Source: an uncultured Methanomassiliicoccales archaeon
Lineage (GTDB): Archaea > Thermoplasmatota > Thermoplasmata > Methanomassiliicoccales > UBA472
Direction of reading: 5' to 3'
NCBI GenBank assembly: GCA_963695345.1
Contig: OY968769.1
Location: 832,001 to 896,000 of the forward strand
DNA: 64,000 nucleotides
How positions within the stretch are numbered: the stretch's first letter is position 1; the number at the start of each line of letters is the position of its first letter. Shown here in pieces: positions 15,563 to 40,506 of this stretch. The notes under the pieces were generated by a model that was not told the DNA's origin, did not search any database, and was given only the letters and a program-made list of their open reading frames with translations. The translations under genes were made by a program, and so were the position numbers.

Positions 15563-15565
15563 GGA

Positions 15566-17134: not shown

Positions 17135-17167
17135 TATTTGCACCTAGACGTACAATGAGGATGCTAA

Positions 17168-17187: not shown

Positions 17188-17210
17188 ATAGAAACCTATT
17201 ACACCTTGAA

Positions 17211-20025: not shown

Positions 20026-20072
20026 CGTGGTTCGAATTGATTACCTGTTATATAACCCAGGCGAATTGATTC

Positions 20073-20700
20073 TCAGCCTTCTGGGTCCTGGCATTGTCCG
20101 ACCGTGGGAGAGCATTCCCTCATGCGTTTGTGGCGGAACTCGCTGCCGGCGCGGTACGCCTCTCCAAGGTTCATCCCCATCGCATAATAGGAATGGTCCG
20201 AAGGCGAGTACCAGAAAGGCAGTATCTTGGCCACGTCTGGAATCCCTTCCTCATCCAGGCAGTCCTCGTCCACTTTGACGTCCTTGATCTCCCCCACGAA
20301 TTGGGTATGGGCCCCCAGGTCGGTGACATGGGTCACCCGGCACTCGAGGACCAGCGGGAACTCGCTGACATAGGGGGCATCCACTATCTTGCTGGCGACC
20401 GCTTTGAGGCCGGCGCTGCTCGAACTTGTCCTCGGCCTTGCCCGAGACCATGCCGAAATAGTCTGATTCCTTGACATGCTTCTCCGAGGGTATGCTGATG
20501 GTGAATGCCTTCCGCCCCATCAGATTCTCGTAGGTGTATCGGACCTTCCTCACCGATATCGCCACGCTCGGAGGCTCCGACGAGCATATCCCGCCCCATG
20601 CACATGCCATCGCGTTAGGGCTATCGTCCCGGTCGTAGGTCCCGACGATGAAGACCGGGGTCGGATAGACCAGTGTTGTCGCCCCAATTGACCTCTTCAT
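20073..20700 (-). CDS. Flavin reductase family protein (flavoredoxin-like); frameshift near 20415
   Basis: YPTPVFIVGTY..NAM..AWGG; DYFGMVSG; APYVSEFPLVLEC; GAHTQFVGEI. Confidence 0.85.
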
Positions 20701-20900
20701 TAACAAATCACCTTCAAGAATAACTGAACTGCTAGCCTAACTACTTTATTGTGGTCCCCCAGCTCCATATTGGACCGGTCATATGAATGTCAAGGGCGAA
20801 CCGGGGCGCGATGAGGATGGTCCGATCCCTGCGGACAGAGTACGTCGTCATTTTCGTTCGGGTATGGGGACTATGAAATAGAAGGAATTCTCATTTCGGA

Positions 20901-21908
20901 ATGATGGTTGAGGAGGAGGGACGCGGGGACCATGACCACGAGGAGGGTCATGAACACGGCCACGATCACGTCCACGCCCGCTTCGAGCCGGGGAAGAATC
21001 TGTCGAAGCCTCTCCTAATCGTGCTTGTCATTACTTCCTCATTCGCGGTGATTGAGCTTCTGGGTGGCCTTCTGTCCGGTTCACTGGCGCTGCTCTCCGA
21101 CGCGGGCCACATGTTCACCGACATCCTGGCATTGTCTTTGAGCCTGGCGGCGGCCATCATCTCCCAGCGGGAGGCCACGGCAAAGCAGACGTTCGGATAC
21201 CTCCGGGTGGAGATCCTGGTGGCCTTGGTAAATGGCGTGGCCCTGATCTTGGTCTCGATATACATCATGTATGAGGCGATAGGTAGATTCACCAACCCCA
21301 CCGGGATCGACTCCGAGCTCATGCTGGTAGTGGCCATCGCCGGACTGGTGGCGAATGTGGTCGGCATCCTCATTCTGCGGGAGCGGTCTAAGGACAACCT
21401 CAATGTGCGGGGGGCGTTCCTGCACATGGTCGGCGACCTGCTCTCCTCGGTCGGTGTCATCATAGCGGCATTGCTCATTTTCCTGTTCAACTGGACCATC
21501 GCCGACCCGGTCATCAGCATCGCCATATCACTGATAATCCTCTATGGCGCGGGGAGGCTGAGCCTGCAGTCCGCCTACATCCTGTTGGAGTTCACGCCGG
21601 CACACCTCGAACTGTCCGAAGTGCGGACCTCCCTCATGAAGATCCCCGGTGTCGAGGACGTGCACGACATACATGCCTGGACCCTCTCATCTGGGGTCCA
21701 TGCTCTCAGCGCGCACGTGAGGGTGAACGACCAGCCGGTCTCCGCCTGCTCCTGCATAGTAAAGGCTTGCGAACATCTTTTGGAGACCAAATATCAGATA
21801 AAGCACTCCACCTTGCAGCTGGAATACGAGCAATGTGACCTGGGAGTATGCTACTTCAAGGGGTTCCCGAAGGACAATGGCTCGGATGAGAAGGGCAAGG
21901 CCGACTGA
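20901..21908 (+). CDS. Cation diffusion facilitator (CzcD/ZitB-like) with His-rich N-terminus
   Basis: SLALLSDAGHMFTD, TFGYLRVE, NVRGAFLHMVGD, HDIHAW, HSTLQLE. Confidence 0.93.
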   Translation: MMVEEEGRGDHDHEEGHEHGHDHVHARFEPGKNLSKPLLIVLVITSSFAVIELLGGLLSGSLALLSDAGHMFTDILALSLSLAAAIISQREATAKQTFGYLRVEILVALVNGVALILVSIYIMYEAIGRFTNPTGIDSELMLVVAIAGLVANVVGILILRERSKDNLNVRGAFLHMVGDLLSSVGVIIAALLIFLFNWTIADPVISIAISLIILYGAGRLSLQSAYILLEFTPAHLELSEVRTSLMKIPGVEDVHDIHAWTLSSGVHALSAHVRVNDQPVSACSCIVKACEHLLETKYQIKHSTLQLEYEQCDLGVCYFKGFPKDNGSDEKGKAD

Positions 21909-21929
21909 ACGAACGGCTGCGATGATCAA

Positions 21930-22180
21930 GCCGGATAAGCCTGAAGGACAACCCTATCATTCTCCTAAGGGGTGTGGGTCAGAGATTTGGGGAAGTTCGC
22001 CTGATGACCTCAACAAGTGTGTCGCACCCCTGACCCACGGAGATCTTAGGGGCCAAGGCATTATACCTGAAGGGCAAGGAGAGCATTGCGCGACCAATAC
22101 CCTGCATGTCGGGGGGACACGCATCCCTCTAGCAGAGGCCTGCCCCTTAGTCTCACGAAAGCATTGAAGGGGCATCGATA
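21930..22180. ncRNA. Candidate structured non-coding RNA (unknown family)
   Basis: Several stems between convergent genes: gtgggtcag 21974-21982/ctgacccac 22030-22038; cctaag/cttagg; tgcccctt 22141-22148/aaggggca 22167-22174; cctct/agagg. Confidence 0.35.
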
Positions 22181-22276
22181 TGTACATAACTGAACGTGAA
22201 CAACCTCATTCCACGATGTATCCGCTGGATAAGCGTTTTGCAGGGCGCAGGCGATCCTGCCGGGATGACTGGACCT

Positions 22277-23830
22277 TCAGTGCCGGAACACCCTTACTCC
22301 CGTGAAGACCATGGCCATGCCATGCTCGTCCGCCGCCTTGATGACCTCTTCGTCCCTGATCGATCCGCCGGGCTGGATTATGGCCGTGACCCCGTTGTTC
22401 GCGGCTTCATCGATCCCGTCCCGGAAGGGGAAGAACGCATCTGAGGCCATGACCGATCCTTTGGCCTTGTCCCCGGCCTTGTGGCAGGCGATCATGGAGC
22501 TGTCGACCCGGGACATCTGTCCGGCGCCAATCCCCACGACCTGCTCCCCCTTCGCCAGTATGATCGCGTTGGACCAGACGTGCTTGACGACCTTCCAGGC
22601 AAAGAGCATTGAGCCGATCTCCGCTTCCGTAGGTGCCCTCTTGGTCACGGTCTTCAGGGTGTCCCGGCCTACGTGGATGAAGTCGTTGGTCTGTACCAGG
22701 ATGCCGCCCTTGACCCGCTTCATCTTGTTCTCCGGTTTGGCATCGTGGACCATCGGCCCGTTGGTCTTGAGAAGGCGTATGTTCTTCTTCTTCTGGATCA
22801 GTTCCAGCGCCGCCTGGTCATATCCAGGGGCGATGACGCAATCGACGAAATGCGACGCGATCATCTCCGCCGTCCTGAGGTCCACGTTCCGGTTCAGCCC
22901 TATGACGCAGCCGAAGGCCGCCAGCGGGTCGACGTTGTAGGCGATCTCGAACGCGTCCGGAATATTGTCAGAGGATGCTATGCCGCAGGGGTTGGTGTGC
23001 TTGATGACGACCACCGTTGGGCGGTCGAACTCACGCAGCAGCTCGAGCGCCGATTCGAGGTCCAGGATGTTGTTGTAGGAGAGCTCCTTGCCATGCAGCT
23101 TCTCGCTGCTGGGTACGGACACCCCGATGCTGAATGGATCCACGTAGAACGCCGCGGTCTGCTCCGGGTTCTCCCCGTATCGGAGGTCCATGGATTTTTC
23201 GAAACCGACGTTGAGCGTGGAGGGGAACTTTTCCGAAGGGAACACGCCCCCCAGGTACTGGGATATCATGGAATCATAGGTGGCGGTGGTCCGGAACGCC
23301 TCCAGCATCAGGGCCTTCAATGTGTCCTCACGGAGCTGGTTATTGTTAGCCTCCATCTCGGCCAGGATGCTACCGTAACGGGATGGGTTCGTGACCACGG
23401 CGACGGACTCATAGTTCTTGGCCGCTGCCCTGATCATGCTCGGTCCGCCAATGTCGATGTTCTCGATGATCTCTTCCAGAGACGCTCCCTTCTTGAGGAC
23501 GGTCTGCTTGAAAGGATAGAGGTTGACGACCACCATATCGATCTTGTCTATCCCCATCTTCTGGATCTGTTCCATGTGTTCCGGCAGGTCCCGGCGGGCC
23601 AGAAGACCGGCGAAGACCTTGGGGTGCAGGGTCTTCACCCGACCGTCAAGCATCTCGGGGAACCCGGTGACGTCGGCCACCGAACGGGTGCTTATTCCGT
23701 TCTTTTCCAGCAGAGAGGCGGTGCCTCCGGTACTGACGATCTCCACCCCTCTCTCGACCAGTTCCCTGGAGAAATCAACTATTCCCTCTTTGTCTGAAAC
23801 ACTGATGATGGCGCGTTCAATCTTGACCAT
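22277..23830 (-). CDS. purH: Bifunctional AICAR formyltransferase / IMP cyclohydrolase (10-formyl-THF dependent)
   Basis: ISVSDK, STGGTA, GRVKTLHP, IDIGGPSM, LRYGENP, KHTNPCG, ASDAFFPF. Confidence 0.97.
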   Translation of the reverse strand: MVKIERAIISVSDKEGIVDFSRELVERGVEIVSTGGTASLLEKNGISTRSVADVTGFPEMLDGRVKTLHPKVFAGLLARRDLPEHMEQIQKMGIDKIDMVVVNLYPFKQTVLKKGASLEEIIENIDIGGPSMIRAAAKNYESVAVVTNPSRYGSILAEMEANNNQLREDTLKALMLEAFRTTATYDSMISQYLGGVFPSEKFPSTLNVGFEKSMDLRYGENPEQTAAFYVDPFSIGVSVPSSEKLHGKELSYNNILDLESALELLREFDRPTVVVIKHTNPCGIASSDNIPDAFEIAYNVDPLAAFGCVIGLNRNVDLRTAEMIASHFVDCVIAPGYDQAALELIQKKKNIRLLKTNGPMVHDAKPENKMKRVKGGILVQTNDFIHVGRDTLKTVTKRAPTEAEIGSMLFAWKVVKHVWSNAIILAKGEQVVGIGAGQMSRVDSSMIACHKAGDKAKGSVMASDAFFPFRDGIDEAANNGVTAIIQPGGSIRDEEVIKAADEHGMAMVFTGVRVFRH

Positions 23831-23978
23831 TTAACAGACCTCGATGATACGAGGCATACTCAAGAATCAGGGTATGCCACCTCTATATTGAATCCGCCCT
23901 GATAAACCTAACTGGTTAGGTATCAGATGGAGAAATGTGACGCCATGTAAGTTTTTATGACCTGGAAAAACATTATTC

Positions 23979-24560
23979 ATGAGTAACATCATTGGAAGCG
24001 ATGCCATGAACACCGGCATATTGGTCTATGACACCTGCGCGCAGTTCGAGGTGGTATTCGCGGCGCTGATCCTCAAGGACAAAGGTGATGTGACCACCTA
24101 CGGGGTGGAAATGAGGGAATTCGAGACCATGGAAGGGTTCAAGATCAAACCCCACAAACTGCTAAAGGACCTGTCGACCGATGACACCGACCTGTTCATC
24201 ATACCAGGTGGACAGCCGGGCGTGATCGCCGGTAACGCCCTCCTGGGCCGGAAGATCAGAGAAATGGATTCTCAGGGTAAATTGCTTGCAGCGATCTGCG
24301 GCGGTCCGGTGCATCTGGGGAATTCAGGGGTTCTCCGAGGAAGGAGATTCACCACCTCAGTCTTTGAAGAATGGAAGGATGCCTTCGAGGGCGGGACCTA
24401 TGTCGATGAGGACCTGGTAGAGGACGGTAATATCATCACCGCCTGGCCAAACGCCTATGCGGACTTCGCATTGACCTTGGGTCGGAGGATGGGGGCGTTC
24501 AGGGACGAGGCCGAGGATGCGTCAATGGTGCGTATGGTGCGCGAGTTCCAACGTGAATAG
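23979..24560 (+). CDS. DJ-1/PfpI family protein
   Basis: IIPGG, AAICGGP nucleophile motif, VEDGNIITA. Confidence 0.85.
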   Translation: MSNIIGSDAMNTGILVYDTCAQFEVVFAALILKDKGDVTTYGVEMREFETMEGFKIKPHKLLKDLSTDDTDLFIIPGGQPGVIAGNALLGRKIREMDSQGKLLAAICGGPVHLGNSGVLRGRRFTTSVFEEWKDAFEGGTYVDEDLVEDGNIITAWPNAYADFALTLGRRMGAFRDEAEDASMVRMVREFQRE

Positions 24561-24640
24561 GCATACTCGACAGGTCCGAACATTCAATTCATTGAGGGCA
24601 ATCCTTTTACCGCCGCCCGATATTCATCAGCCGGTTGCAT

Positions 24641-25417
24641 ATGATAGTCATCAGCGAGCGCATCAACGGGCTTTTCACTTCCGTGGGCAGAGCGATCGAC
24701 AACCGCGACGCCAAGTTCATCCAGGAGCACGCATTGAAACAGATCGCCTGCGGGGCGAACATTCTGGACGTCAACGTCGGACCAGGCCGTGAGGATGGAC
24801 CGGCGGCGATGGACTGGCTTGTCAGGACGGTTCAGGAAGTCACCGACGTCCCGCTATGCCTGGACACGCCCGGCGCAAAGACCATGACCGCAGGATTGAA
24901 GGCGTGCCAGAACAAAGTGGTCATGAACTCCACCACGGCAGAGAAGAAACGCATGGACGTCTTCTTTCCCCTGGCCCGGGAATACAACGCGGATGTCATC
25001 TGTCTAACCATGGACGAGAGGGGCATCCCGAACGATGCCGAATCCAGGACCGAGATGGCCATGCTGATGATGACCACGGCGATGGAGAACGAGATCATGC
25101 CGGAACGCCTATTCCTCGATCCGCTCATCCTGCCGACGAAGGCGGCCCAGGACCAGGGGGCCAAGGTCATCAAGGCCATTGAGATGTTCCAACAGCTGAA
25201 CGACCCTTCACCCAGGACGGTGGTCGGATTGAGCAATGTCTCCAACGGCGCTAAGGACAGGCCGCTGGTGAACCGGACGTTCCTGGCCATGCTCATGGGG
25301 GCAGGCCTCAGCGCGGCCATCCTGGACCCGGAGGACGTTCAGCTTATGGAGACGCTCAAGACGGCCCAGATACTCCGGAATGAGAAACTGTATTGCGACG
25401 ATTACCTGAGGGCATGA
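24641..25417 (+). CDS. acsE: Methyl-THF:corrinoid iron-sulfur protein methyltransferase
   Basis: ISERING, LDVNVG, PLCLDT, NST, DPLILP, GLSNVSNG, NRTFLAM and AILDP pterin-binding barrel. Confidence 0.92.
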   Translation: MIVISERINGLFTSVGRAIDNRDAKFIQEHALKQIACGANILDVNVGPGREDGPAAMDWLVRTVQEVTDVPLCLDTPGAKTMTAGLKACQNKVVMNSTTAEKKRMDVFFPLAREYNADVICLTMDERGIPNDAESRTEMAMLMMTTAMENEIMPERLFLDPLILPTKAAQDQGAKVIKAIEMFQQLNDPSPRTVVGLSNVSNGAKDRPLVNRTFLAMLMGAGLSAAILDPEDVQLMETLKTAQILRNEKLYCDDYLRA

Positions 25418-27900: not shown

Positions 27901-28926
27901 TCATCCGATAGCCAGAAGAACTCCCAGAATGACTGTGACGATCATCAGGCCAAGCGCTGTCAGATTGGATACCCAGTGAACATAGCGGTAGCGTTTCGGG
28001 TCTTTTCTCATGCCGGCCCCCGTGATTATCCCAACCACCGCGAATATGACCGTCAGAAGCGCTATCCGCCCATGCAGGGAATAGAACACCGCCCCCCTGA
28101 GCTGTTCGGTCACGGCTATCCAGTAAAGGAATGTAAGCAGCATGATCAGGTAGAATAGGATGCTCACATAGCGGTGATACCTCTGCCCGAACAGGTCAGG
28201 GATGCGGTCCGCCACCTTCCTGTCCGAGGAGTTCCTGAGGCCGGAGAGGACGGAGAATGAGCCCAGGGCCAGGGCCATCGTCATCAGCAGGGCATGAACG
28301 AACCAATCCGAGATCGGGTTGATGCTGGCGTCGTCAGCCCATCCCCTTCCCTCCCAATATCCTTTGTAGTCGTAACCGACCACCTCGATGGCGTAGACCC
28401 ATTTGGCCCATTTGTATCCCCATTCGCCTGGGACGACCGTTCTAAGCGGATATCCCTGGTCCAGGGGCAAAGTCTCGTTGTTCATCCCATAGGCCAATAT
28501 GACGTCGCCCCGCATGGCGTCCGCCATTCTGAGGCTGGTCGAATAGCCGTCCATGCCATAGAACACGACCTCCTGGGCCTCGGAGGAGGTCCCGGCCATG
28601 TCCAGTATCGCACCGAGCCGCACTCCGACCCATTCGGCGGTCCCGGAGGGGCCGGTCACGCAGCGTATCGTCTCCTTCTCTGAGGAATTGTCCATGGAAA
28701 GGACCTGTTGGTATGACAGGTTGAGCGAGCGGTCGACAAGGCCGAACACGGTGAGGGTATAGCCAGTGATGTTCACTTCCGGAACGCCGTTGTAGGAAAC
28801 GCTGAAGAAACGGTCGTTGGGGGTTATCGGAGGACCTGAGGGAGGGGCCGGCGAGGGTATCAAGAGCAGTATCAATGCTATGGAGACGAGTATGGCCAAT
28901 ACACCGACGGCCCTTTTCCACAGCAT
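27901..28926 (-). CDS. Sulfite oxidase/MsrP-family molybdopterin oxidoreductase fused to a 4-His cytochrome b561-like membrane domain
   Basis: TPNDRFF, Mo-ligand CVTG, DGYSTS, GYPLR..PG..GYKWAKW, GYWE.RGW; C-terminal TMs with VHALLM, RYHRY, FYSLHG, YVHW. Confidence 0.82.
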   Translation of the reverse strand: MLWKRAVGVLAILVSIALILLLIPSPAPPSGPPITPNDRFFSVSYNGVPEVNITGYTLTVFGLVDRSLNLSYQQVLSMDNSSEKETIRCVTGPSGTAEWVGVRLGAILDMAGTSSEAQEVVFYGMDGYSTSLRMADAMRGDVILAYGMNNETLPLDQGYPLRTVVPGEWGYKWAKWVYAIEVVGYDYKGYWEGRGWADDASINPISDWFVHALLMTMALALGSFSVLSGLRNSSDRKVADRIPDLFGQRYHRYVSILFYLIMLLTFLYWIAVTEQLRGAVFYSLHGRIALLTVIFAVVGIITGAGMRKDPKRYRYVHWVSNLTALGLMIVTVILGVLLAIG

Positions 28927-29048
28927 GCACTGTTTCAATTACATCCGGGAGGGCATAATCCTTCGCCTTGGATCTTGAGATTGTCAACGTTCCATGGAAC
29001 AAGAAGGCGACCCGTCGGCAGGGCATTGTGCACGGTTCTGTTCGGCGG

Positions 29049-30452: not shown

Positions 30453-30899
30453 GGTTGCAACAGATGATCCGGACATTCCGGCGTATAGATGGCGTTCCCG
30501 GTCCCTATATTCCAAACCTGATGCTTGCACTAGGAACTTTTTTTCTATTTCAATTCTCAGCCTACGATTGCCTAATAGGATATCTGATGGCGAGAGAAAT
30601 AATCTTCCTTCAAAATATCAAGTCATCACCCCATGTCGCCGTATCATCAATTTCGGGGAATGGAACCTGTTAAAGGACGACGGCTGACGATAGCGATTGG
30701 CGACATAGCATCCGTTTGAATTGGCTTCAGGCTGCTGCGTAGCGCACGATCGACATCGTGGATAATAATCTAATGAAGACCTCATCATCGCAATGCTCAA
30801 ATCGCGGAGAAGATGGAAAGACCATTCTTAGAAAACGAATAATAAAAAATGAATCGGTTAACCGACCAAAGATCGTATCGGAAAGATTTTGGAACAGGT

Positions 30900-31091
30900 C
30901 TAGAACCTGTTCCTGGGTGTTGCGGGCTTGTGCTTCTGGTAGCAATCCCTGCAATATACCGGCCTGCCCTCGGTCGGCTTGAATGGAACCTGGGTCTCCG
31001 CTCCGCAGTCGGAACACTTCACGTTATGCATTTCTTTCGGGCCGTCGTCTCTGCGGCCGCCAAATCCACTGGATCTCGGTTTTCCGTACAT
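30900..31091 (-). CDS. CxxC-x17-CxxC zinc-ribbon protein
   Basis: CSDCGAETQVPFKPTEGRPVYCRDC with a G/R-rich N-terminus. Confidence 0.9.
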   Translation of the reverse strand: MYGKPRSSGFGGRRDDGPKEMHNVKCSDCGAETQVPFKPTEGRPVYCRDCYQKHKPATPRNRF

Positions 31092-31231
31092 TATTATTAC
31101 CTTTCGGTTTTTCCCGTCCCGCCACCTTCGAGGCGCTAGGGATGATTCGAATCAACCCCCTAGTATAAAAAAATAGATGGTCGGACGGTCAAACATAACA
31201 ATGACTGGCATGACACGAAAGAGCACGGTGC

Positions 31232-32173
31232 CTAGGAGGGATCCTGCTCCGTCCCGACCGTCACCGGACGGGGATATAGGCCGGCCTCGCGCACTATCTC
31301 CGGAACCTTCTCCTCCCAGGCCACCGCCATGATGTGAATGCCATGGACGCCCTTCATCTGTTTCAGGTGCTCGATGGTCTCGATACAGAGCTTGATGCCT
31401 TCCGCCTTCGGATCGGCCGCGGTCTTCATGCGGTCGATGATAGCGTCCGGGACGCTCATGCCGGAGACCTTGTTCTTCATGTAGAGAGCGACCTTTGCCG
31501 ATTTCAGCGGCAGCACCCCGGCCAGAATGTGGACCTTTCGGTCGAGGCCCCGGTCCCGAACCCCATCCATGAACGTTTCGAACCTGTCCATATCATAGAT
31601 GGACTGGGTCTGTATGAAGTCAGCCCCGGCGGCCACTTTCTTGGCCAAACGGGCGACCCGGAACTCGAACGGGTCCCCGAACGGGTTCTCCACCGCTCCC
31701 AGGTACAGCTGGGGGGCGGCCTCGAGGAGGTCCCCTCCCCAGGCCTTTCCCTCGTCGCGCATGGAGCGCAGGACCATGAGCTCCTGGATGGAGTCCAGGT
31801 CGTATACGTTCTTGGCCTCCTTCTGGTTGCCGAATATCTGATGGTCCCCGGTCAGGCACAGGACGTTCCGTACCCCGAGCGCGCTGGCTCCCAGGACGTC
31901 GGATTGGATGGCGATGCGGTTCCGGTCCCGGCAGGCCATCTGCATGACCGGCTCGACGCCTTCCTGTATGCACACCAGCGAAGCGGCCCAACTGGACAAC
32001 CTAACCATTGCCGTCTGGTTATCGGTCAGATTGAAGGCGTCGGCATACCCTCTCATGTTCCCGACGTGTTTCCTCAGCACATCGGGGTTGGCCCCCTTCG
32101 GAGGCCCTATCTCGGCGGTGACCGCGAACTGCCCGGAATCCAGCACTCTCTGCAGGTTGCTTGAGGCCTTCAT
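31232..32173 (-). CDS. metF: Methylene-THF reductase, flavin subunit
   Basis: TAEIGPPKG, NLTDNQ, CRDRNRIAIQSD, CLTGDH, KVAAGADFIQTQ, GIHIM. Confidence 0.93.
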   Translation of the reverse strand: MKASSNLQRVLDSGQFAVTAEIGPPKGANPDVLRKHVGNMRGYADAFNLTDNQTAMVRLSSWAASLVCIQEGVEPVMQMACRDRNRIAIQSDVLGASALGVRNVLCLTGDHQIFGNQKEAKNVYDLDSIQELMVLRSMRDEGKAWGGDLLEAAPQLYLGAVENPFGDPFEFRVARLAKKVAAGADFIQTQSIYDMDRFETFMDGVRDRGLDRKVHILAGVLPLKSAKVALYMKNKVSGMSVPDAIIDRMKTAADPKAEGIKLCIETIEHLKQMKGVHGIHIMAVAWEEKVPEIVREAGLYPRPVTVGTEQDPS

Positions 32174-32873
32174 TGCGAGACCCCCCGGATCCTCTTTTCC
32201 TCGTCGGTCTGGACCGCTTCCTTCCTGACGGTCTTCCGCGGCCCTCCGGAGCGGCTCGGCCTCCAGTTCTTGGGGGGATCACGGCCTCCATGAGGTCCAG
32301 GCGGCCCAGCTCCTTTAATGAGCGGTAAATCAGGTCCCAGCCGCAGGGGGTGTCCGGGTCGATCTCGCACTTGCCGTTCTGGGAGCCGCCGCAGGGGCCG
32401 TTCATCAGGCTCTTGGAGCACCTCGCCACGGGACACACCCCTCCAGTAAGGTGCAGCACGCAGTCTCCGCAGCCACCACACCTCTCCAGGTAGATCCCCT
32501 GCTCTTCCGGCGCGCCCATGGAAACGGTGTTGACGCCGGGAACGACGAAAACCGAGGGATACATATCGTGGATGACCTGAGCGCCGACCCCGCACGCCAA
32601 AGAGATGACCGCGTCCTTGCCCTCGATGGCCGCCTTCATGCCCGCGGCCCATTCCTTCTCGCACGCCCGCTCGAGGGTGACCACATCTACGTTCCACCCC
32701 TTGTGTTCGAGGTCGGAATGCAGCCGGAGCGATTCCGCCAGAATGTTCGCCTCCTTTTCCCCTCCGGCCAGGCAGATCGCCACGCAGGAACGGCATCCTA
32801 CGACGAGCACTTCCCTGTGCCCCTCGAGCATCTTGATGACATCAATCAATGGTTTCTGTTCCGCGATGATCAT
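32170..32873 (-). CDS. metV: Methylene-THF reductase Fe-S/Zn subunit; frameshift near 32270
   Basis: MIIAEQKP, GCRSCVAIC, ACGVG, CGGCGDC, CPVARCSKSLMNGPCGG..C..C. Confidence 0.9.
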
Positions 32874-33274
32874 TTCCTCACCTTTCCGATGGGGTTCGGG
32901 CCGAGCCTATCCACCCTCGAGACCATCTCCTCGACGATCTCCACGAACCTCCAATCCTGATTGGAGGACAGGTTGAACATCTCCAGCCGCTCCGGTTCCA
33001 GACCGGCGGACTGGATCAGCGATTTCGCCAATGTGACGCGTTTCCGCGCCTCGATGTTGCCATACTGGTATTTGCAGTTGCCTTCGAGGCATCCAGCTAC
33101 AAATACGGCATCCGCGCCCTCCCGGAGCGCCCTCAGGAGATGCACCACATCTACCCTTCCGGTGCATGGCAGCTCCACCAGCGTCACCGAGGATGGATGG
33201 ACCGACCCTTTCGATGATGCCCGCTCGGCCGCCTCCAGCGCGCCGTCCCGGCAAACGAACCCGATGATCTTCAT
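32870..33274 (-). CDS. mvhD: MvhD/FlpD [2Fe-2S] electron-transfer subunit
   Basis: FVC, PCTGRV, GADAVFVAGC..GNC.Y..GN, GLEPERL, LGPNP. Confidence 0.92.
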   Translation of the reverse strand: MKIIGFVCRDGALEAAERASSKGSVHPSSVTLVELPCTGRVDVVHLLRALREGADAVFVAGCLEGNCKYQYGNIEARKRVTLAKSLIQSAGLEPERLEMFNLSSNQDWRFVEIVEEMVSRVDRLGPNPIGKVRK

Positions 33275-34911
33275 TCCATCTCCTCCAGTGCGGATGCCAA
33301 CTCTGACATTATCTGGTCATCCCGGTAGGAGTATACCTGGATGGCCTTGCTGGGGCAGGCCGCCGCGCAAATCCCGCAGCCCTGGCATATGCCGATGTCG
33401 ACCTCGGCCTTCCTCTCCGTACCAATGCGGGGAGCGTGGAAGGGGCAGGTCCTGACGCAGGTAAGGCATGCGGAGCAACGTTCCTGATCGACCTCGGCGA
33501 CGTTCCCTCCGATTACCAGGCGCGAACGGAGCAGCGAGGCCATCCTGGAGGCCGCGGCCTTTGCGCTCATGGTCGGACCCGCCCCCAGGTTCATTTCCGA
33601 GGCCGAACCGCAAAGGAGAATACCGGGAATATGAGCGGAGACCGGACGGCATTTGGGATTGGACCGGGCCATGCCGCCGTCGGAAGCGAGCGGTAGCTGG
33701 AAAGCCCTGGCCACGACCTCCGTCCCGACGCTCTCGGAACGGTTGTCCACCACCACCAGGTCAGCCGGTATCCTAAGGACCAGGCCGGAATGCATGTCCT
33801 TGACGACCAGACCTCCATCGTCCATGGTCGGCACGGTCTCCGAACGGATGAAACGGACCCCCATCTCCTGGGCCTTGCGGTATCCCACCTCGCACTGGCC
33901 GAAGGCATAGACCTCACGGAGGATCACGGTGACATTGGATTTGGGCGATAGGCCTTTGGCGTGCATCGAATGATGCACGGCGTCATGCGTGGACATGGGC
34001 GAACGTTCCGACGTCCCATCCTGGTCCATGGCAACCATGACGATGTTCCGCGGGACCCTCCCCAACGCCCGGAGCTGCGCCTCGAACCCTTCCTGGGTTA
34101 TGGCGCCAGGGAATCGTGAGAGCAGGGGATTGAAGGAATCGACCTTGTCCAGGGCGACGATCGCGCCTCCTACCGTTTCCTTCCATGTCTCTCCGCCCTT
34201 GGACATCGTCACCGTAAAATCGCCTGGATGTCCGTCAATGGACCGGACCTCGGTGGAATCGTGCACCCGGAACCGGTCCCCGACCGAATCGGCCATCTGG
34301 TCCAGTGCCCCGCCCTCCAGCGGGATAACGCTCTGATGGTCGCTCTCCTCGATCTGGGAGGTCGGATTCGCCACGATCACATCCAGACCTTCATCCAATA
34401 ACGCCATGGAAGCGGTTATGGCGGATGGCCCGTTGCCGATGACCAGCACCTTTCTCGACCTCCCCACTTCCATGCGGGGAGTGGTCTGGAGCATCGCGAT
34501 CCTCCTCAGCGAGGTGCGCATCGCGCGTTCCGCCCTGCCCTGCGCCTCTGACCTGGATAGGGGGCCGCACAGGCCGATGATATCGACGAAGGTGACCAGT
34601 TCGGGACAGATGCCGGCCGATTCCGCCAGTTGCGCGAATCGTTCCGATGCGCTACGGGCGCTGCAGCCGACCACCATGAACCTGTCGATGTCCCCGGCCA
34701 TCAGGGAGAGCTTGACCTCTCCCAAGGCTGGCCCGTCGCACCCGCGGTCGAAGCAGAGAACGTCCCTGACATTGGCGTCGGCGTTGGCAATAACCTTGAT
34801 CCGGTCCAGGTCGACCTTTCTGGATATTACCCCGCCGCAGGAGCATATGAAGACCCCGATGCCCTTGGGCGTTCCGATGGGGCCGTGAGAGGGCGGCACC
34901 GGCTCGGTCAT
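33271..34911 (-). CDS. HdrA/QmoB-like subunit with degenerate FAD and cluster motifs and C-terminal 2x[4Fe-4S]
   Basis: GVFICSCG N-domain; VIGNGPSA in place of GGGxAG; QCVGSR/CSxxCC replaced; CSACLTCVRTCP and CQGCGICAAACP. Confidence 0.85.
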   Translation of the reverse strand: MTEPVPPSHGPIGTPKGIGVFICSCGGVISRKVDLDRIKVIANADANVRDVLCFDRGCDGPALGEVKLSLMAGDIDRFMVVGCSARSASERFAQLAESAGICPELVTFVDIIGLCGPLSRSEAQGRAERAMRTSLRRIAMLQTTPRMEVGRSRKVLVIGNGPSAITASMALLDEGLDVIVANPTSQIEESDHQSVIPLEGGALDQMADSVGDRFRVHDSTEVRSIDGHPGDFTVTMSKGGETWKETVGGAIVALDKVDSFNPLLSRFPGAITQEGFEAQLRALGRVPRNIVMVAMDQDGTSERSPMSTHDAVHHSMHAKGLSPKSNVTVILREVYAFGQCEVGYRKAQEMGVRFIRSETVPTMDDGGLVVKDMHSGLVLRIPADLVVVDNRSESVGTEVVARAFQLPLASDGGMARSNPKCRPVSAHIPGILLCGSASEMNLGAGPTMSAKAAASRMASLLRSRLVIGGNVAEVDQERCSACLTCVRTCPFHAPRIGTERKAEVDIGICQGCGICAAACPSKAIQVYSYRDDQIMSELASALEEME

Positions 34912-36128
34912 TTCAACCTCTCCAGATAGATGCTGGCCTTGCCCGCCGCGATGTTTCCGTCCATAACGCACTCCTCGATGTCCTTGGGGCCGGAGCATGA
35001 TCCGCAGAAGAACAGCCCTTTGGCATCAGTCACCCGCCCGGGGTTCCCTTCGGACACGAAGAATCCTTGCGGGGAAAGGCGTACTCCGAGCGAGCTCGCG
35101 ATATCCGCCCCGGAGTCTGGAGGCATGAGACCGATCGATAGAATGACCAGATCGAACTCCGTCTCCTTGACGCCGTCGTCGGTGGCCATCGCATACCGGA
35201 CGAGCGGTCTCCCGCCCTCGCCTTCGACCACTTCGGCGGGCCGGCTCCGCAGCACCGTCAGTTTCGGGTCGGAACGGGCCAGGTCCGTGATCGAGTCCTC
35301 GTCCGCGTACCTCCTCCAGTCCATCATGAAGAAGGATATGTCGAGATTAGCGTCCGCTGCCCTCAATGATTGGGCCAGTTTCATCGCGTATTTGCAGCAC
35401 ACCTTGGAGCATTGCTCGGACCCGGTTCGGCCCCTTGAGCCTACGCATTGGATGAAGGCGACGCTGCGCGGCGGCTTCCCTTCGCAGAAACGATTCAATG
35501 AGCCGCACCGATTCAGCTCCGCCTCCGCGTCAAGACCGGTGATGACCCCGTTGACCGAGCCATAACCCAATCTCGGGTCTGCCCCGGCGTCGAACGGATC
35601 GTTACCTACCGCCACAATGATGGCGTCCGCCAGGACCTCGCAGCCTACCGGACCGGTCCGGACCGCGTCCCTGGAACAGACATCGACACACCTGCTGCAT
35701 TCCTCCACCGGGAACGGGCAGGACGGCGTCACTACCTTTCTCTGACCCTTGCTGCCAGTAACCGCCACTATGGCCCCGGACGGACAGGCATCGGCACAGT
35801 CACCGCAACCATCGCAGCTCATCGGGTCGATGGAACGGCCCGGCGCAACGGTGACCCGGTACATTCCCATGTCCCTCTCGATCGTGGCCACCTCCGAGGA
35901 GGTGATGATCCTCACCAGGCCTGAACGGAACAGTCTCGGGACCAGCTCCGTCGACATGCACACATCGCATTTCACGCATTGCACCCGCCCCTTGCAGGCT
36001 AGCTCTGAGGCCAGTCCGCCCAATCTAGGGGAGCGCTCCACGATGGTGCATGGTATTCCCCTCTGGGCCAGTGAAAGGGCCGCAGAAATGCCCGCGGTAC
36101 CTCCGCCGATGATGACCACACCTCTCAA
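34908..36128 (-). CDS. HdrA/QmoA-like flavoprotein with inserted ferredoxin
   Basis: IIGGGTAG, CDGCGDCADACP, FIQCVGSR, CSKVCC, DLVILSIG, GPKDI; TTG start with gaggtg RBS. Confidence 0.9.
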   Translation of the reverse strand: MRGVVIIGGGTAGISAALSLAQRGIPCTIVERSPRLGGLASELACKGRVQCVKCDVCMSTELVPRLFRSGLVRIITSSEVATIERDMGMYRVTVAPGRSIDPMSCDGCGDCADACPSGAIVAVTGSKGQRKVVTPSCPFPVEECSRCVDVCSRDAVRTGPVGCEVLADAIIVAVGNDPFDAGADPRLGYGSVNGVITGLDAEAELNRCGSLNRFCEGKPPRSVAFIQCVGSRGRTGSEQCSKVCCKYAMKLAQSLRAADANLDISFFMMDWRRYADEDSITDLARSDPKLTVLRSRPAEVVEGEGGRPLVRYAMATDDGVKETEFDLVILSIGLMPPDSGADIASSLGVRLSPQGFFVSEGNPGRVTDAKGLFFCGSCSGPKDIEECVMDGNIAAGKASIYLERLK

Positions 36129-36335
36129 GGAAACCGCACCTCGGGTGAACGAAGTATGGTGGACGACATCTCAGGTTGGAGTGCCGGGAATGATTCGAAA
36201 TGATACTGGACGGTCAAATGGTATCGGACTTTCTGACCTGATGGGTGATATAAAAAGCTTATGAACATGCTATTGCGCCGGACGGGGATTGTGGTTCGGC
36301 AACGGTTATCTAGGGCGCTGACCTTCTGTTTCCCC

Positions 36336-37175
36336 ATGCGCAGGGCGGCCATCACCGTCGATGTGGACAGGGATGTCAATCAGGCCTGTAAGGGACGAAC
36401 GGCGGCCATCTCCAGTCCTGTCAATGGTTCGGACCAGCCCAGGTTCTCCTCGTCCAGGAAAGGCTTGGAGCTCATCGTGGCCGCCATGAACGACCTGGAG
36501 GTCCGCGGGACGTTCTTCTTTGAGGCGACGACGGCGCTGGAGATCAGCAAGTCGGCGGATATCGCTGAACTGATGCAGGGACATGAGATCGCCTGCCATG
36601 CCTATGACCATGAGGATCTGACCGGGCTCGACACCGGGATAAGGATCGACCGGGAGGAGGTCGACGATATCCTGGAAAGGTCCATCGGGGTGCTGGATTC
36701 CCTGTTCGGCGAAGGAAGGCGCGGTTTCCGTGCCCCCTACCTGCACTCGAACGATGAGCTGATGGAATCGCTGAAGGAACACCGCTTCCTCTATGATTCC
36801 AGTGTGGTGGAGGAGATGCGCGACGGCCAGATCCGGCCCTATCTCACCAAGGGCGGATTGCCGGAGGTGCCCATCGCATCATCGCGGGACGGCCGGGGGA
36901 AGAAGATAGTGGGATATCTCTGGCCCCTGCATGAAGGAAAGAGGCCCATAGGCGACTACCTCCAAATGGTGGACGGTTTCCGAGACGGGCTGCTGGTCCT
37001 CTCCACCCATTCCTGGCATCCGGTGGAGAACTTCTGCGATGGCCAGCAATGCGAGCTCGATGTGCAGAAGGGCATGGACGACCTGAGGACGCTCATCAAT
37101 CATTCGATCGACACAGGGGTGGAGTTCGTCACCGTGGCGGAATATGTCGGCCGGGACATGGGAGGGAGCTGCTGA
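36336..37175 (+). CDS. Polysaccharide deacetylase (CE4/NodB-like) family protein
   Basis: TVDVD, GTFFF, HEIACHAYDH, GFRAPY, YDSS, HSW. Confidence 0.85.
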   Translation: MRRAAITVDVDRDVNQACKGRTAAISSPVNGSDQPRFSSSRKGLELIVAAMNDLEVRGTFFFEATTALEISKSADIAELMQGHEIACHAYDHEDLTGLDTGIRIDREEVDDILERSIGVLDSLFGEGRRGFRAPYLHSNDELMESLKEHRFLYDSSVVEEMRDGQIRPYLTKGGLPEVPIASSRDGRGKKIVGYLWPLHEGKRPIGDYLQMVDGFRDGLLVLSTHSWHPVENFCDGQQCELDVQKGMDDLRTLINHSIDTGVEFVTVAEYVGRDMGGSC

Positions 37176-37819
37176 TGCCTGCCATCTTCGAAAAACTGAG
37201 GAACACTGCCAGCTATTCCGCCGCCCAGGAGAAGGCCTGGGAAGACCTGGTCCATCTGGATTCGAAGAGCATCGCGAAGAACTCGATGGCCGATTTCGAT
37301 GGCCGGACGTTCACCCTCAATGTGCTCGACGAGACCGTCAAGGTCGATAAATGGGAGGGCCGGGTGACCACTTCAAGTCCGCATGACCGGGCCTTCGAGA
37401 TCCTGGTGATGCATTATCTGATCGGCTGCCAATCGGGAGGGCCGTGCGGCGAGCTTGTCCTTTTCCGCCAGCTCAAGGGAGGGGAGGCGTACAACGATAC
37501 CTTCCACAAACGCGTGAACGACCGGTTGGCCAAGGCGTTCGGCGACGATCCCGGGTCGCTGGTAACGACGGGCGAACGGTTGAAGGGAACCAGGAGGTCT
37601 AAGGGCAACGCTTCGATCGAACTGCCCCTGTTCCCCAAGGTCCCCATCACCGTTATCGTCTGGCGGGGGGATGATGAGATCCCAGCTTCTTCCACAGTTC
37701 TGTTCGACCGCAGCATAGGCGACATCTTCCCCACCGAGGACGTTGCAGTGGCCGGCTCCCTGATCGTGGAGAAGCTGGTCGGGGCGAAGGGAGAATGGCC
37801 GGTCAGTACAGACCGGTGA
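37175..37819 (+). CDS. DUF3786 family protein
   Basis: ILVMHYL, FRQLKGG, LFPKVPI..WRGDDE.PAS..LFD, EDV pattern; TGATG coupling to the upstream gene. Confidence 0.75.
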   Translation: MPAIFEKLRNTASYSAAQEKAWEDLVHLDSKSIAKNSMADFDGRTFTLNVLDETVKVDKWEGRVTTSSPHDRAFEILVMHYLIGCQSGGPCGELVLFRQLKGGEAYNDTFHKRVNDRLAKAFGDDPGSLVTTGERLKGTRRSKGNASIELPLFPKVPITVIVWRGDDEIPASSTVLFDRSIGDIFPTEDVAVAGSLIVEKLVGAKGEWPVSTDR

Positions 37820-39476
37820 TGTAACCGTCATCGCTGATGTCGATCCCCAGCGCCGCCGGGTCGGAGGACAGGCCGGGCATGAGCATTATCGGACCGCAGA
37901 CCACCACGATGAACCCTGCCCCGGCGGAAACGAACACTTCCCTGACGTTCAGTTCCCATCCGGTGGGGGCTCCCTTCAGTTTAGGATCGTCGGATAGGGA
38001 AAGCTGGGTCTTGGCCATGCAGACGGGGAGGTGATTGGTCCAGGAGCTCTCGATGAGCTTGATGGACTTCTCTGCCCCGCTCTCGTACTGAACGTCCATG
38101 GCACCGTACATCTCGGTGGCGACCACCCGGATCTTCTCCTTCAGCGGCAGGTTCGTGTCATAGAGGAAGCGGAAATTGGGCTTCTCGTTGGCCAAGACCT
38201 CAAGCACCTGCGAAGCCAGCTCCGCGCCTCCCTCCCCACCTTTAGCGAACACGTCGGAGAGCGCGCACCGCACGCCTTTCTCCTTGCAGTGATCGATGAC
38301 GATCCTGATCTCCTCCTCGGTATCGGTGGCGAAATGGTTCAGAGCCACGACCATCGGCACACCGAACTTCCTGATGTTCTCGATATGCTTGTCCAGATTC
38401 GAGAATCCGCGCCTCAGGCCGTCGCAGTCCTGAACGCATACCTTGTCGATGGGGACGTTCCCGTGCATCTTCAGCGCCCGGATCGAGCACACGACGACCG
38501 CGCAGTCGGCGTGGATACCTTCATTGCGACAGACTATGTCGAAGAACTTCTCTGCGCCCAGATCGGCCGCAAAGCCCGCCTCGGTGACGACGATGTCGGC
38601 CATCTTCAGGGCATATTTGGTGGCGGTTAGGGATGAATTGCCGTGGGCGATGTTCGCGAAGGGGAAGCCATGGATGAAGAACGGTTCGCCCTCCAAGGTC
38701 TGGACCAGATTAGGGAATATGGCATCCTTGAGGAGCAATGCCAGCGCTCCCACGCATCCGAGCTGGGTGACGGTGACCGGCTCTCCGTCGAAGGTGTAGG
38801 CCACGATCATCCTTCCCAATCGCTCCTTGAGGTCGGCCATGGAGGTGGCCAGGGCGAGGATGGCGCTGATCTCCGTCGCCACGGTGATGATGAAACCGCC
38901 CTCGTGCGGGGTCCCGCCTTCGGTCCTGCCGCCAAGTCCGACCACGATGTGCCGCAGCTCACGGCAGTTCATGTCCATCGCCTTGCGCAGTACTATCCGG
39001 GTAGGATCGATATTGAGCGGGTTCTTCTTGGAAATGCTGTTCTCCAGCAGGGCCGAGAGCAGGTTGTTCGCGGCTCCGACCGCATGGATGTCCCCGGTGA
39101 AATGCAGGTCGATGTCCCACATCGGGTATACCTGGGAGTATCCGCCGCCGGTGGCGCCCCCCTTGAGGCCGAAAGTGGGCCCTAGGGACGGTTCACGGAT
39201 CGCCCCCATCACCTTCTTGTTCAGCCTTCCCAATGCCTGCACCAGGCCGATGGTGGTGACCGTCTTGCCTTCCCCAGCCGGCGTGGCGGTGATGGCGGTC
39301 ATGAGCACGAGCTTGCCAGTCGGATGGCCGTCGAACTTCTTGAGAGAGCTCAGCGGCACTTTCGCGATGTACTTGCCATAGAGGACGATGTCATCCTTGT
39401 CCAGACCGACGGACCTCGCGATATCCTCGATGGGTCTGGCCTTGACTTCCTGAGCGATCTCGATGTTGGTCTTCAT
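37803..39476 (-). CDS. fhs: Formate-tetrahydrofolate ligase
   Basis: TPAGEGKT, REPSLGP..KGGATGGGYSQV, LHFTGD, PFANIAHG, TEAGF, CMAKTQ, MPGL. Confidence 0.97.
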   Translation of the reverse strand: MKTNIEIAQEVKARPIEDIARSVGLDKDDIVLYGKYIAKVPLSSLKKFDGHPTGKLVLMTAITATPAGEGKTVTTIGLVQALGRLNKKVMGAIREPSLGPTFGLKGGATGGGYSQVYPMWDIDLHFTGDIHAVGAANNLLSALLENSISKKNPLNIDPTRIVLRKAMDMNCRELRHIVVGLGGRTEGGTPHEGGFIITVATEISAILALATSMADLKERLGRMIVAYTFDGEPVTVTQLGCVGALALLLKDAIFPNLVQTLEGEPFFIHGFPFANIAHGNSSLTATKYALKMADIVVTEAGFAADLGAEKFFDIVCRNEGIHADCAVVVCSIRALKMHGNVPIDKVCVQDCDGLRRGFSNLDKHIENIRKFGVPMVVALNHFATDTEEEIRIVIDHCKEKGVRCALSDVFAKGGEGGAELASQVLEVLANEKPNFRFLYDTNLPLKEKIRVVATEMYGAMDVQYESGAEKSIKLIESSWTNHLPVCMAKTQLSLSDDPKLKGAPTGWELNVREVFVSAGAGFIVVVCGPIMLMPGLSSDPAALGIDISDDGYITGLY

Positions 39477-39618
39477 TAGCTCCACCCTGGGAAGGACAGG
39501 TATGTTGGAAGTATGTCTTAAACGTTAGGACATTGTCCTTCCTGAACCTGACCAGTGGTCCCGGTAGGGCATCGAACATTTATTATTTAGCGGATAGATA
39601 GGGTGACACTGAGACCTC

Positions 39619-40506
39619 ATGACCGCCATCTTGATCGAGGGAAAGCCCATCGCCGAGGAAATCAGGAAGGAACTAAGGGAAAGGATATCCTTGTTGAAGG
39701 ATAAGGGGGTCGTCCCAGGCCTGGCCGTCATCTTGGTCGGGGATGACGCGGCCTCACAGACCTATGTCCGCATGAAGGGGAAGGCGAGCGAAGAACTGGG
39801 CATGTTCTCGCAGACCATCCTCAAGCCCAATGACTTCACCGAAGCGGCGTTGCTCCAGCTCATCGACGAGCTCAATGCGGACCCCCGGGTCCATGGCATC
39901 CTGGTGCAACTGCCCCTGCCTCCGCATATCGATGAGCGGAATGTCCTGGTCCGCATCGACGAGCGCAAGGATGTGGACGCTTTCCATCCGGTGAACGTGG
40001 GCAAGATCTTGATCGGAGACCATACCGGTTTCATGCCGGCCACACCTTACGGCATACAGGAACTTCTTATTCGCAGCGGGAATGCGCCATCGGGTAAGCA
40101 CGTGGTCATACTGGGAAGAAGCAATATCGTAGGCAAGCCCCTGGCGGCCATGCTGATGCAGAAGGATGAGCGCGCCAATGCCACGGTCACCGTCTGCCAC
40201 TCAAGGACCAAGAACCTGGCGGAGATAACCCGCACCGCCGACATCCTGATCTCGGCGATGGGGGCGGAGGCGGCGTTCGTCAAGGCGGATATGGTCAAAC
40301 CGGGAGCGGTGGTCATCGATGTCGGTTCGAACCGTGTGCCGGACAAGAGCCTGCCAAGGGGTTACCGGTTAGTGGGGGACGTAGACTTCGATTCCGTGAG
40401 GTTGAAGGCGGCGGCGATCACCCCCGTGCCTGGCGGAGTGGGTCCGATGACCATCGTCATGCTCATGCGCAACACCATCAAGGCGGCGGAGTCGACGCTG
40501 GAATGA
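39619..40506 (+). CDS. folD: Bifunctional methylene-THF dehydrogenase / cyclohydrolase
   Basis: YVRMK, GILVQLPLP, KDVD..HP.N, GRSNIVGKP, ITPVPGGVGPMT. Confidence 0.97.
   Translation: MTAILIEGKPIAEEIRKELRERISLLKDKGVVPGLAVILVGDDAASQTYVRMKGKASEELGMFSQTILKPNDFTEAALLQLIDELNADPRVHGILVQLPLPPHIDERNVLVRIDERKDVDAFHPVNVGKILIGDHTGFMPATPYGIQELLIRSGNAPSGKHVVILGRSNIVGKPLAAMLMQKDERANATVTVCHSRTKNLAEITRTADILISAMGAEAAFVKADMVKPGAVVIDVGSNRVPDKSLPRGYRLVGDVDFDSVRLKAAAITPVPGGVGPMTIVMLMRNTIKAAESTLE

Follow-up and report, generated by a model that had tools for sequence, protein, structure and literature searches.

An operon of two HdrA-like genes with mvhD, metV and metF in Methanomassiliicoccales, a probable split-gene form of Hdr-linked methylene-tetrahydrofolate reductases

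Described Hdr-linked reductases and the archaeal operon

Every Wood-Ljungdahl pathway that uses folate has its energetic bottleneck at the interconversion of methyl- and methylene-tetrahydrofolate (THF), and for the enzyme form that is linked to heterodisulfide reductase (Hdr) proteins neither a solved structure nor an agreed mechanism exists, even for bacteria. In Moorella, a MetFV-HdrABC-MvhD complex has been proposed to bifurcate electrons, its second acceptor being unknown (Mock et al. 2014, as cited in PMC9012536 and PMC9430772). In Sporomusa ovata, pull-down experiments described in PMC9430772 indicate that MetV, MetF and MvhD each bind HdrA, and the model put forward there is that of a non-bifurcating complex. 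According to the same source, the HdrA proteins of S. ovata and M. thermoacetica have an extra thioredoxin-reductase-like (TrxR) module in front of an MvhD-like domain, another TrxR module lacking an inserted ferredoxin domain, and a ferredoxin domain at the C terminus; in S. ovata, the Glu/Lys (E/K) signature is reported in the first module only. Already in the literature are the bacterial enzyme type, HdrA pairs read as heterodimers and, from an archaeon, a MetFV-HdrA-MvhD cluster, that described for 'Ca. Syntrophoarchaeum' in PMC9012536. The present analysis concerns the operon hdrA1-hdrA2'-mvhD-metV-metF in a 64,000-nucleotide (nt) window (the whole stretch of DNA analysed) of contig OY968769.1, from an uncultured Methanomassiliicoccales archaeon (assembly GCA_963695345.1). 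This operon very probably represents an archaeal split-gene form of the HdrA-MvhD-MetVF type of methylene-THF reductase. Three points set it apart from the bacterial type: hdrBC is missing from its vicinity, there is no NAD(P)H (GltD) module, and HdrA1 bears a four-Cys motif that is invariant.

The open reading frames (ORFs) of the window include five co-directional ones on the minus strand between 31232 and 36128, listed here in order of transcription together with two putative signals read directly from the letters:

34908..36128, minus strand: hdrA1, 406 amino acids (aa), truncated HdrA flavoprotein
33271..34911, minus strand: hdrA2', 546 aa, HdrA-like protein complementary to HdrA1
32870..33274, minus strand: mvhD, 134 aa, [2Fe-2S] adaptor subunit
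32170..32873 (frameshift-corrected), minus strand: metV, iron-sulfur subunit of MetVF
31232..32173, minus strand: metF, 313 aa, catalytic subunit of methylene-THF reductase
36248..36256, minus strand: TATA-box-like TTTTTATAT, about 120 nt upstream of the hdrA1 start
31167..31173, minus strand: oligo-T run of 7 T, about 60 nt past the metF stop

The initial annotation of this stretch had listed these five genes in this order on one strand, which the ORFs and their Pfam and HdrA matches bear out, and had described all of them as joined by overlapping stop and start codons. In the letters, ATGA overlaps are present at hdrA1/hdrA2', hdrA2'/mvhD and mvhD/metV; the fourth, at metV/metF, appears only once a one-base frameshift in metV is corrected. 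The five-gene operon is real in the organism, and it is this frameshift that keeps it from being fully so in the letters of the window. The start codon of hdrA1 is TTG, with GAGGTG 8 nt upstream. The public HdrA1 product for this genome (P0088) has 304 aa and is 100% identical over 75% of the query, so that the public gene call seems to miss both the TTG start and the flavin adenine dinucleotide (FAD) motif. The sequence TTTTTATAT lies within the 132-bp divergent intergenic region 5' of hdrA1 and is a putative TATA box, and the T7 run may be an archaeal terminator-like element. Scanning 30600-36400 for bacterial-type promoters and terminators gave counts at the level of shuffled sequence (2 where shuffles averaged 2.2, and 2 where they gave 3.4), and no tRNA genes or Rfam families were found in the 64-kb window.

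The three downstream products are assigned by curated families. MvhD matches Pfam FlpD/MvhD with 127.2 bits (curated cut-off 22.3) and solved MvhD chains with E from 9e-31 to 3e-19, and its C8, C37, C62 and C67 are invariant among 66 sequences (numbering of the first row, a close orthologue from locus L041). MetV matches DUF5981, the MetV C-terminal domain, with 119 bits (cut-off 23), and MetF matches MTHFR with 148 bits (cut-off 24), its orthologues across Methanomassiliicoccales being 63-91% identical. The AlphaFold2 (AF2) model of MetV has a predicted local distance difference test score (pLDDT) of 90.7. A Foldseek search of the PDB with it returned 0 matches at E <= 0.001, only generic alpha/beta folds with a query TM-score (TMq) of about 0.3 appearing, and offers no hint of where MetV docks; the search of the PDB by MetV sequence gave spurious repeat-protein matches only, and hhalign found no relation between MetV and MvhD (probability 1.1%).

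Within the order, 201 genomes were surveyed and the 35 best HdrA2' places, chosen by score and not at random, were fetched. All five genes stand in order in 30 of them, the other five are truncated by contig ends and none is reordered; the conserved gene order on which the first reading of the operon had been made to depend is therefore found in relatives. That reading had also stated that no hdrB or hdrC is adjacent, and this holds: no gene for a CCG domain (HdrB-type) was found in the window, the nearest lying about 43 kb past its end, and no HdrB or HdrC match was found in the flanks of the 34 loci of the order tested or of 15 named split archaeal loci. MetF occurs in 85 of the 201 genomes (39/46 in family f1, 1/1 in f2, 4/4 in f3, 1/1 in f4, 7/10 in f5, 21/24 in f6 and 11/114 in f7), and CdhC in 113 (f1 41/46, f6 24/24, f7 37/114).

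Beyond the order, a GTDB-wide scan (one genome per species, a 12-row alignment and two peptide patterns) yielded 80 loci, a biased sample since two peptide patterns miss many relatives. A run of HdrA1-like, HdrA2'-like, MvhD, MetV and MetF is present in 54 of these 80 loci, and this conserved unit, together with a matching HdrA domain map, upholds the homology to the Moorella-type MetFV-Hdr-MvhD cluster that had been suggested at the outset. In the bacterial loci, the homologues of HdrA1 and HdrA2' are contained in one ORF of about 1000-1050, 1415 or 1480-1560 aa, the last class being restricted to bacterial loci, and mvhD-metV-metF follow; the exceptions among the 80 are the archaeal loci. 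Flanking sequence contains an HdrB- or HdrC-like match at 28 of the 80 loci. In an unrooted FastTree of 115 rows covering the HdrA2' region, one side of a branch with local support 100 consists of the 45 split archaeal rows; five proteins selected to serve as outgroup were placed among the fused forms of bacteria. In 18 of the 80 loci (e.g., L093, L095, L112), a second, more distant MetF paralogue, about 30% identical, is located directly upstream of the fused HdrA gene, in addition to the metV-metF pair downstream of it.

The operon shares with S. ovata HdrCBA-MvhD-MetVF the gene order hdrA, mvhD, metV, metF on one strand, the HdrA domain plan (an E/K-bearing first TrxR module, then a domain resembling MvhD, a second TrxR module that has no inserted ferredoxin, and a ferredoxin at the C terminus) and the absence of an NAD(P)H module. 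Unlike in S. ovata, the two HdrA modules are here separate genes and thus two polypeptides, a ferredoxin domain is inserted in the HdrA1 of this lineage, hdrC and hdrB are missing from the cluster, and HdrA1 carries CKGxxxCxxCxxC in place of the bacterial DKTFPTNDCxxC. Methanogens of the order Methanomassiliicoccales are not known to have cytochromes or quinones, so that the membrane model of S. ovata is not transferable to them. With the Moorella complex the operon has in common homologous subunits, the cluster order and a ferredoxin domain in the first HdrA module. The Moorella HdrA, as described in PMC9430772, is instead a single protein of 1487 aa with a GltD NAD(P)H/FAD insertion. No such insertion is found here, the 406 aa of HdrA1 giving a continuous alignment to HdrA residues 146-566, and hdrBC, part of the Moorella complex, is missing.

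Two complementary HdrA chains

HdrA1 aligns with residues 146-566 of the solved HdrA 5odc_A (E 1e-58, 202 bits) and consists of a TrxR-like FAD domain into which a 2x[4Fe-4S] ferredoxin domain is inserted; it has no N-terminal domain and no C-terminal ferredoxin, and so begins at the FAD motif, as had been noted from the letters. Its best NCBIfam match is the HdrA model, with 220.5 bits against a cut-off of 1100. In an alignment of 26 orthologue rows (A2), the FAD fingerprint GGGxAG/GG is conserved (G8, G10, G13, G37 and G38 in 26/26, E31 in 24/26), as are the cysteines of the HA4 cluster (C228, C240, C244 and C245, 26/26), E202, equivalent to E356 of the solved HdrA (26/26), and K250, equivalent to K409 (24/26). 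This E/K pair tells bifurcating HdrA flavins from others, according to the account of Kremp et al. (PMC9430772). The eight cysteines of the inserted ferredoxin domain are found in 20 of the 26 rows, the domain being absent from the other six (genera g4 and g5).

HdrA2' aligns with residues 13-244 and 422-655 of the solved HdrA (E 4e-40, 141 bits), and its best NCBIfam match is likewise the HdrA model (194.6 bits, cut-off 1100). Its AF2 model (pLDDT 85.3) has HdrA chains as top PDB matches (E 1e-42, TMq 0.74-0.75). It is composed of an N-domain related to MvhD (hhalign probability 81%), a TrxR-like domain that is degenerate and, at the C terminus, a 2x[4Fe-4S] ferredoxin, which agrees with the early description of a second HdrA that starts with the CxC domain, ends in a ferredoxin and is followed by the MvhD gene. 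In 29 orthologue rows, C23, C58 and C83 of the N-domain and the eight cysteines of the C-terminal ferredoxin are invariant (29/29). Between residues 116 and 339, HdrA2' is devoid of cysteine; HA4, the inserted ferredoxin domain and a counterpart of the Cys194/Cys197 pair are hence all missing. The Lys of the E/K pair is absent too, and the Rossmann motif reads GxGxxA, without the acidic residue and the GG present in HdrA1.

Thus, the four domains of a canonical HdrA are not found in one chain above the NCBIfam cut-off in either protein, and only HdrA1 has the FAD fingerprint, the HA4 cysteines and the equivalents of E356 and K409. Domains and cysteines are split between the two chains, as the initial annotation had implied, and their complementarity, as read from alignments, supports a heterodimer. 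Chadwick et al. 2022 (PMC9012536) proposed this complementary loss as a mark of HdrA heterodimers in anaerobic methanotrophic archaea (ANME), whose tandem or fused HdrA pairs are described there as having lost the N-domain and Cys197 in a complementary way. The lineage differs, being here Methanomassiliicoccales and relatives, and the clusters of 'Ca. Syntrophoarchaeum' can be likened to the operon by their published description only. With the methanogen HdrABC-MvhAGD complex (5ODC and related structures from cryo-electron microscopy), the operon products share the HdrA fold, FAD, HA4, both ferredoxin domains and the MvhD adaptor, as well as an N-domain cluster completed by a Cys of the partner. 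They differ in that two unlike chains with one full flavin site replace the HdrA homodimer, and, in the reading proposed below, MetVF would take the place of the hydrogenase. The archaeal form is the simplest version found, with two half-size HdrA chains that have one complete flavin site between them and with neither an NAD(P)H module nor HdrBC; structural and mechanistic studies could therefore find in it a more tractable subject.

The motif CKGxxxCxxCxxC of HdrA1 (C45, C51, C54 and C57) is conserved in 26/26 rows, at a position where bacterial fused forms and the solved HdrA have DKTFPTNDCxxC, and its C54 and C57 take the place of C194 and C197 of the latter. It is retained in family f6, where the N-domain of HdrA2' is gone, so it may form a cluster of its own. 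Among the 120 best HdrA1 relatives in a large protein collection, 109 have the motif, 10 are N-terminal fragments and one is different. A few motif-bearing relatives have bacterial names (Desulfomonilaceae, Deltaproteobacteria), and the motif is therefore not strictly archaeal. P0183, P0190/P0192 and similar sequences with such names are stand-alone proteins of about 413 aa with CKATDxCxxCxxC, the HA4 cysteines and one ferredoxin motif, and they are not QmoA. In several Desulfobacteraceae loci (L090, L093, L094, L095, L104 and others), a TGA codon stands at the Cys197 position of the first module of the fused HdrA (KTFPTNDCAM*), presumably encoding selenocysteine.

The pair had at first been described as QmoAB-like. 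Comparison was made with the genes beside aprBA in two sulfate-reducer genomes, which are taken to be qmoABC from that adjacency. The layout is indeed alike, as a short HdrA-like protein that begins with the FAD motif precedes a longer one that starts with a Cys-rich N-domain. Membership in the Qmo family is rejected, since HdrA1 is only 27% identical to QmoA (424 aa), with 122 bits against 202 for the solved HdrA, and HdrA2' 22% identical to QmoB (778-781 aa, with MvhD fused), with 68 bits against 141. Moreover, the Cys motif of QmoA is FPKLCPPTCG, and in the operon the pair is followed by mvhD-metV-metF, with no qmoC, no aprBA and no HdrC-like match in the flanks.

Part of this architecture has been lost in some relatives. 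Among 12 further loci chosen through MetF, eight contain reduced operons, three metV-metF only and one metF only. In family f6 and genus g6, HdrA1 has no inserted ferredoxin domain and HdrA2' no N-domain. Loss of the HdrA genes is accompanied by loss of mvhD. The loci can be arranged in a stepwise reduction (L162-L165, L168, L173; L067-L074), in which first the inserted ferredoxin domain, then the N-domain of HdrA2' and finally all but metV-metF, in f7, are missing. In three loci without HdrA genes (L169, L170 and L171, from f4 and f7), hdrC-hdrB lie about 3-4 kb from metF, which could reflect chance or the remnant of a functional link.

Possible electron route and competing explanations

The wiring through MvhD considered here is modelled on the solved Mvh-Hdr and Fdh-Hdr complexes, in which an exchangeable redox module is attached by way of MvhD as adaptor. 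The five proteins would form one complex, in which HdrA1 and HdrA2' would pair as a pseudo-dimer mimicking the HdrA homodimer, with a single complete flavin site. HdrA1 would contribute FAD, HA4 and the inserted ferredoxin domain, its four-Cys loop sitting where the Cys that completes the N-domain cluster of the partner would be; HdrA2' would provide this N-domain cluster and the C-terminal ferredoxin, on which MvhD would dock. Electrons would pass from the flavin of MetF through the clusters of MetV, the [2Fe-2S] cluster of MvhD and the ferredoxin domain of HdrA2' to the FAD of HdrA1, from which one branch would lead to ferredoxin and the other, via HA4, to a partner whose genes lie elsewhere, HdrBC being the most plausible, and hence to the heterodisulfide of coenzymes M and B (CoM-S-S-CoB). 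HdrBC is encoded at other sites of the genome, where HdrB-type CCG domains occur at seven places. The main direction expected would be methyl-THF oxidation for C1 supply, with the heterodisulfide as a thermodynamically suitable acceptor, because the organism lives on methyl groups and no formate dehydrogenase is expected, no molybdopterin enzyme having been found in a search of the genome (rated 85% complete). Oxidation of methyl-THF for C1 supply was proposed earlier by Lang et al. 2015, as cited in PMC6147122. An F420-linked enzyme was rejected, as no FrhB-type domain was found in this genome at the same completeness, and so was an NAD(P)H-linked one, there being no GltD module, for which reason NAD(P)H would not be used. 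As a whole, the wiring and the partners proposed here are a tentative reading, plausible though somewhat short of probable.

The standard potentials are -200 mV for methylene-/methyl-THF, -140 mV for CoM-S-S-CoB and about -450 to -500 mV for ferredoxin. By these values, methyl-THF can reduce the heterodisulfide and cannot reduce ferredoxin at the same time, so that the ferredoxin branch would have to run in reverse, or to be used in the reductive direction only. The initial idea that coupling to ferredoxin and a second carrier drives methyl-THF oxidation thus needs restating: either the heterodisulfide is the sole acceptor, or reduced ferredoxin helps in a confurcation. Besides this thermodynamic limit, several observations weigh against the proposed complex. 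An HdrBC partner in trans has to be assumed, since hdrBC was never near the split archaeal operon in the loci tested (0 of 34 and 0 of 15), and the association of the five proteins, MetVF included, in one complex is likewise inferred. A complex prediction for MetF, MetV and MvhD, with a score of 0.17 for the partner MvhD against a mark of 0.32 in a run without controls, weighs on neither side. S. ovata MetVF has been purified without Hdr and MvhD proteins, as reported in PMC9430772. HdrA2' may or may not bind flavin, lacking as it does both the GG and the acidic residue of the FAD fingerprint, and the inserted ferredoxin domain, sometimes with the N-domain of HdrA2', is absent from several lineages, in which the ferredoxin branch must be dispensable. 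Finally, metV is frameshifted in this assembly.

A more specific version, in which the complex is a methyl-THF:heterodisulfide oxidoreductase whose ferredoxin branch and extra four-Cys cluster would tune or gate the flow, is unlikely on present evidence. If it were true, methanogens deemed strictly H2-dependent would oxidise some methyl groups to formate while reducing CoM-S-S-CoB, which amounts to methyl disproportionation without H2, and the redox link named as missing by Speth and Orphan 2018 would be supplied. Genome papers on Methanomassiliicoccales treat MetF as NAD(P)H-linked, and Speth and Orphan 2018 (PMC6147122) name a ferredoxin link as unknown; for that link the operon is a concrete candidate. 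In Borrel et al. 2014, a second mvhD is listed with no account of its context. No paper was found in which MetVF of Methanomassiliicoccales is connected with an HdrA pair and MvhD; the search did not cover supplementary files, so such a link may already be in print.

The strongest competitor is a plain, non-bifurcating reductase linked to ferredoxin, with the HdrA pair and MvhD serving as wire and ferredoxin dock and no third partner. The operon encodes just two obvious external sites, as this would require, acetogen MetVF has been proposed or reported to use reduced ferredoxin (PMC8760232, PMC8515935), and the model given for S. ovata in PMC9430772 is non-bifurcating. In such an enzyme, however, the invariant HA4 cysteines would be useless, and E202 (26/26) and K250 (24/26), residues said to mark bifurcating HdrA flavins, are kept. 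In addition, lineages without the inserted ferredoxin domain retain the remainder of the system, and ferredoxin cannot accept electrons from methyl-THF, which leaves the reductive direction only. We regard a reductase of this kind as doubtful.

It is rather improbable that the operon encodes an H2-driven bifurcating reductase, in which MvhAG would dock on MvhD and MetVF would replace HdrBC at HA4, so that 2 H2 reduce methylene-THF and ferredoxin. An operon without hdrBC leaves the HA4 side free, the genome encodes MvhA, the E/K signature and, as far as this lineage goes, the inserted ferredoxin domain persist in HdrA1, and by standard potentials the reaction would be strongly exergonic. On the other hand, hdrCB is co-encoded with the fused homologue in 28 of the 80 GTDB-wide loci; HdrC should therefore occupy HA4 in bacteria and MetVF sit elsewhere, which makes a switch of docking site in archaea the less simple assumption. 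Moreover, the genomic mvhAG already has its own mvhD alongside (MvhA and three further MvhD copies are encoded outside the operon), and no formate dehydrogenase was found that could feed a reductive methyl branch from CO2.

Weaker still is the explanation that the genes are co-transcribed with their products acting separately, MetVF alone and HdrA1, HdrA2' and MvhD as an independent redox module for another substrate. The purification of S. ovata MetVF mentioned above (PMC9430772) would fit it, as would the family f7 genomes that keep metV-metF alone. Nevertheless, the arrangement of the five genes, 4-base overlaps included, persists across Methanomassiliicoccales, as does that of mvhD-metV-metF across bacterial phyla, mvhD is lost wherever the HdrA genes are lost, and the pull-downs of S. 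ovata, as PMC9430772 reports them, link the proteins, all of which makes this separation quite improbable.

The metV frame and the surroundings of the operon

As written, the metV frame continues to 32019 and overlaps metF by 155 nt, and its final 80 residues resemble an out-of-frame translation. The alternative frame ends with TGA at 32170, which gives the ATGA overlap with metF, and one C added to the C6 run at 32271-32276 would join both frames. The corrected frame restores the conserved tail PPKxW..GGPRK, lost in the written one; P200, K202, W204, G210, G211 and R213, conserved in an alignment of 96 rows, are found in the corrected frame only. All 28 intact MetV orthologues have 231-235 aa and end at the metF start, and the distance from residue 202 to this start is 95 nt in the relatives compared and 94 nt in the window. 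A public sediment-metagenome contig, 97.7% identical (13 differences in 577 bases), has one extra base at the C run, evidence that is weak alone, as it comes from a single contig at depth 4.4.

Other frames of this genome are also interrupted. [quoted passage not shown] Completeness is 85%, compared with 93-99% in five of seven genomes of the genus (55% in one). These broken frames, together with the completeness, point to many indel errors in the assembly, and the metV frameshift is very probably one of them. A decaying operon in this strain, with a real frameshift and an inactive enzyme, would account for the C6 run where the metV frame needs C7, and is very improbable given the further broken frames, a completeness below that of most genomes of the genus, the extra base in the 97.7% identical contig and the intact remaining codons of all five genes.

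The window lies on a 2.56-Mb contig with 56% G+C, in the genome of a methanogen, which encodes McrA and in which no MtrH was found at 85% completeness; named relatives of the proteins are labelled 'Methanomassiliicoccales archaeon'. Around the operon, the following genes were identified, the first three by Pfam as conserved neighbours and the others as part of the folate/acetyl-CoA set:

37175-37819, plus strand: DUF3786 protein
37803-39485, minus strand: fhs
39619-40506, plus strand: folD
7397-13786: CODH/ACS, about 20 kb from the operon
14810-15562: cooC-like gene
18086-19885: RACo
22277-23830: purH
24635-25417: pterin-binding, AcsE-like methyltransferase

A near-complete folate-type Wood-Ljungdahl set is thus contained within about 33 kb (7397-25417 and 31232-40506) of this McrA-bearing genome, and many relatives likewise have CdhC at about 20 kb from the operon. 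Two further features of the window bear no apparent relation to the operon, namely a pair of Kelch-repeat proteins at 3815-7118 and, at 27901-28938, a membrane protein with a molybdopterin-oxidoreductase domain and DUF4079. DUF3786, fhs and folD are the usual neighbours of the operon in the loci of relatives, with DUF3786 between the operon and fhs in most of them. DUF3786 also follows metV in three fused-HdrA loci, at least two of which are named Dehalococcoidales (L148, L149).

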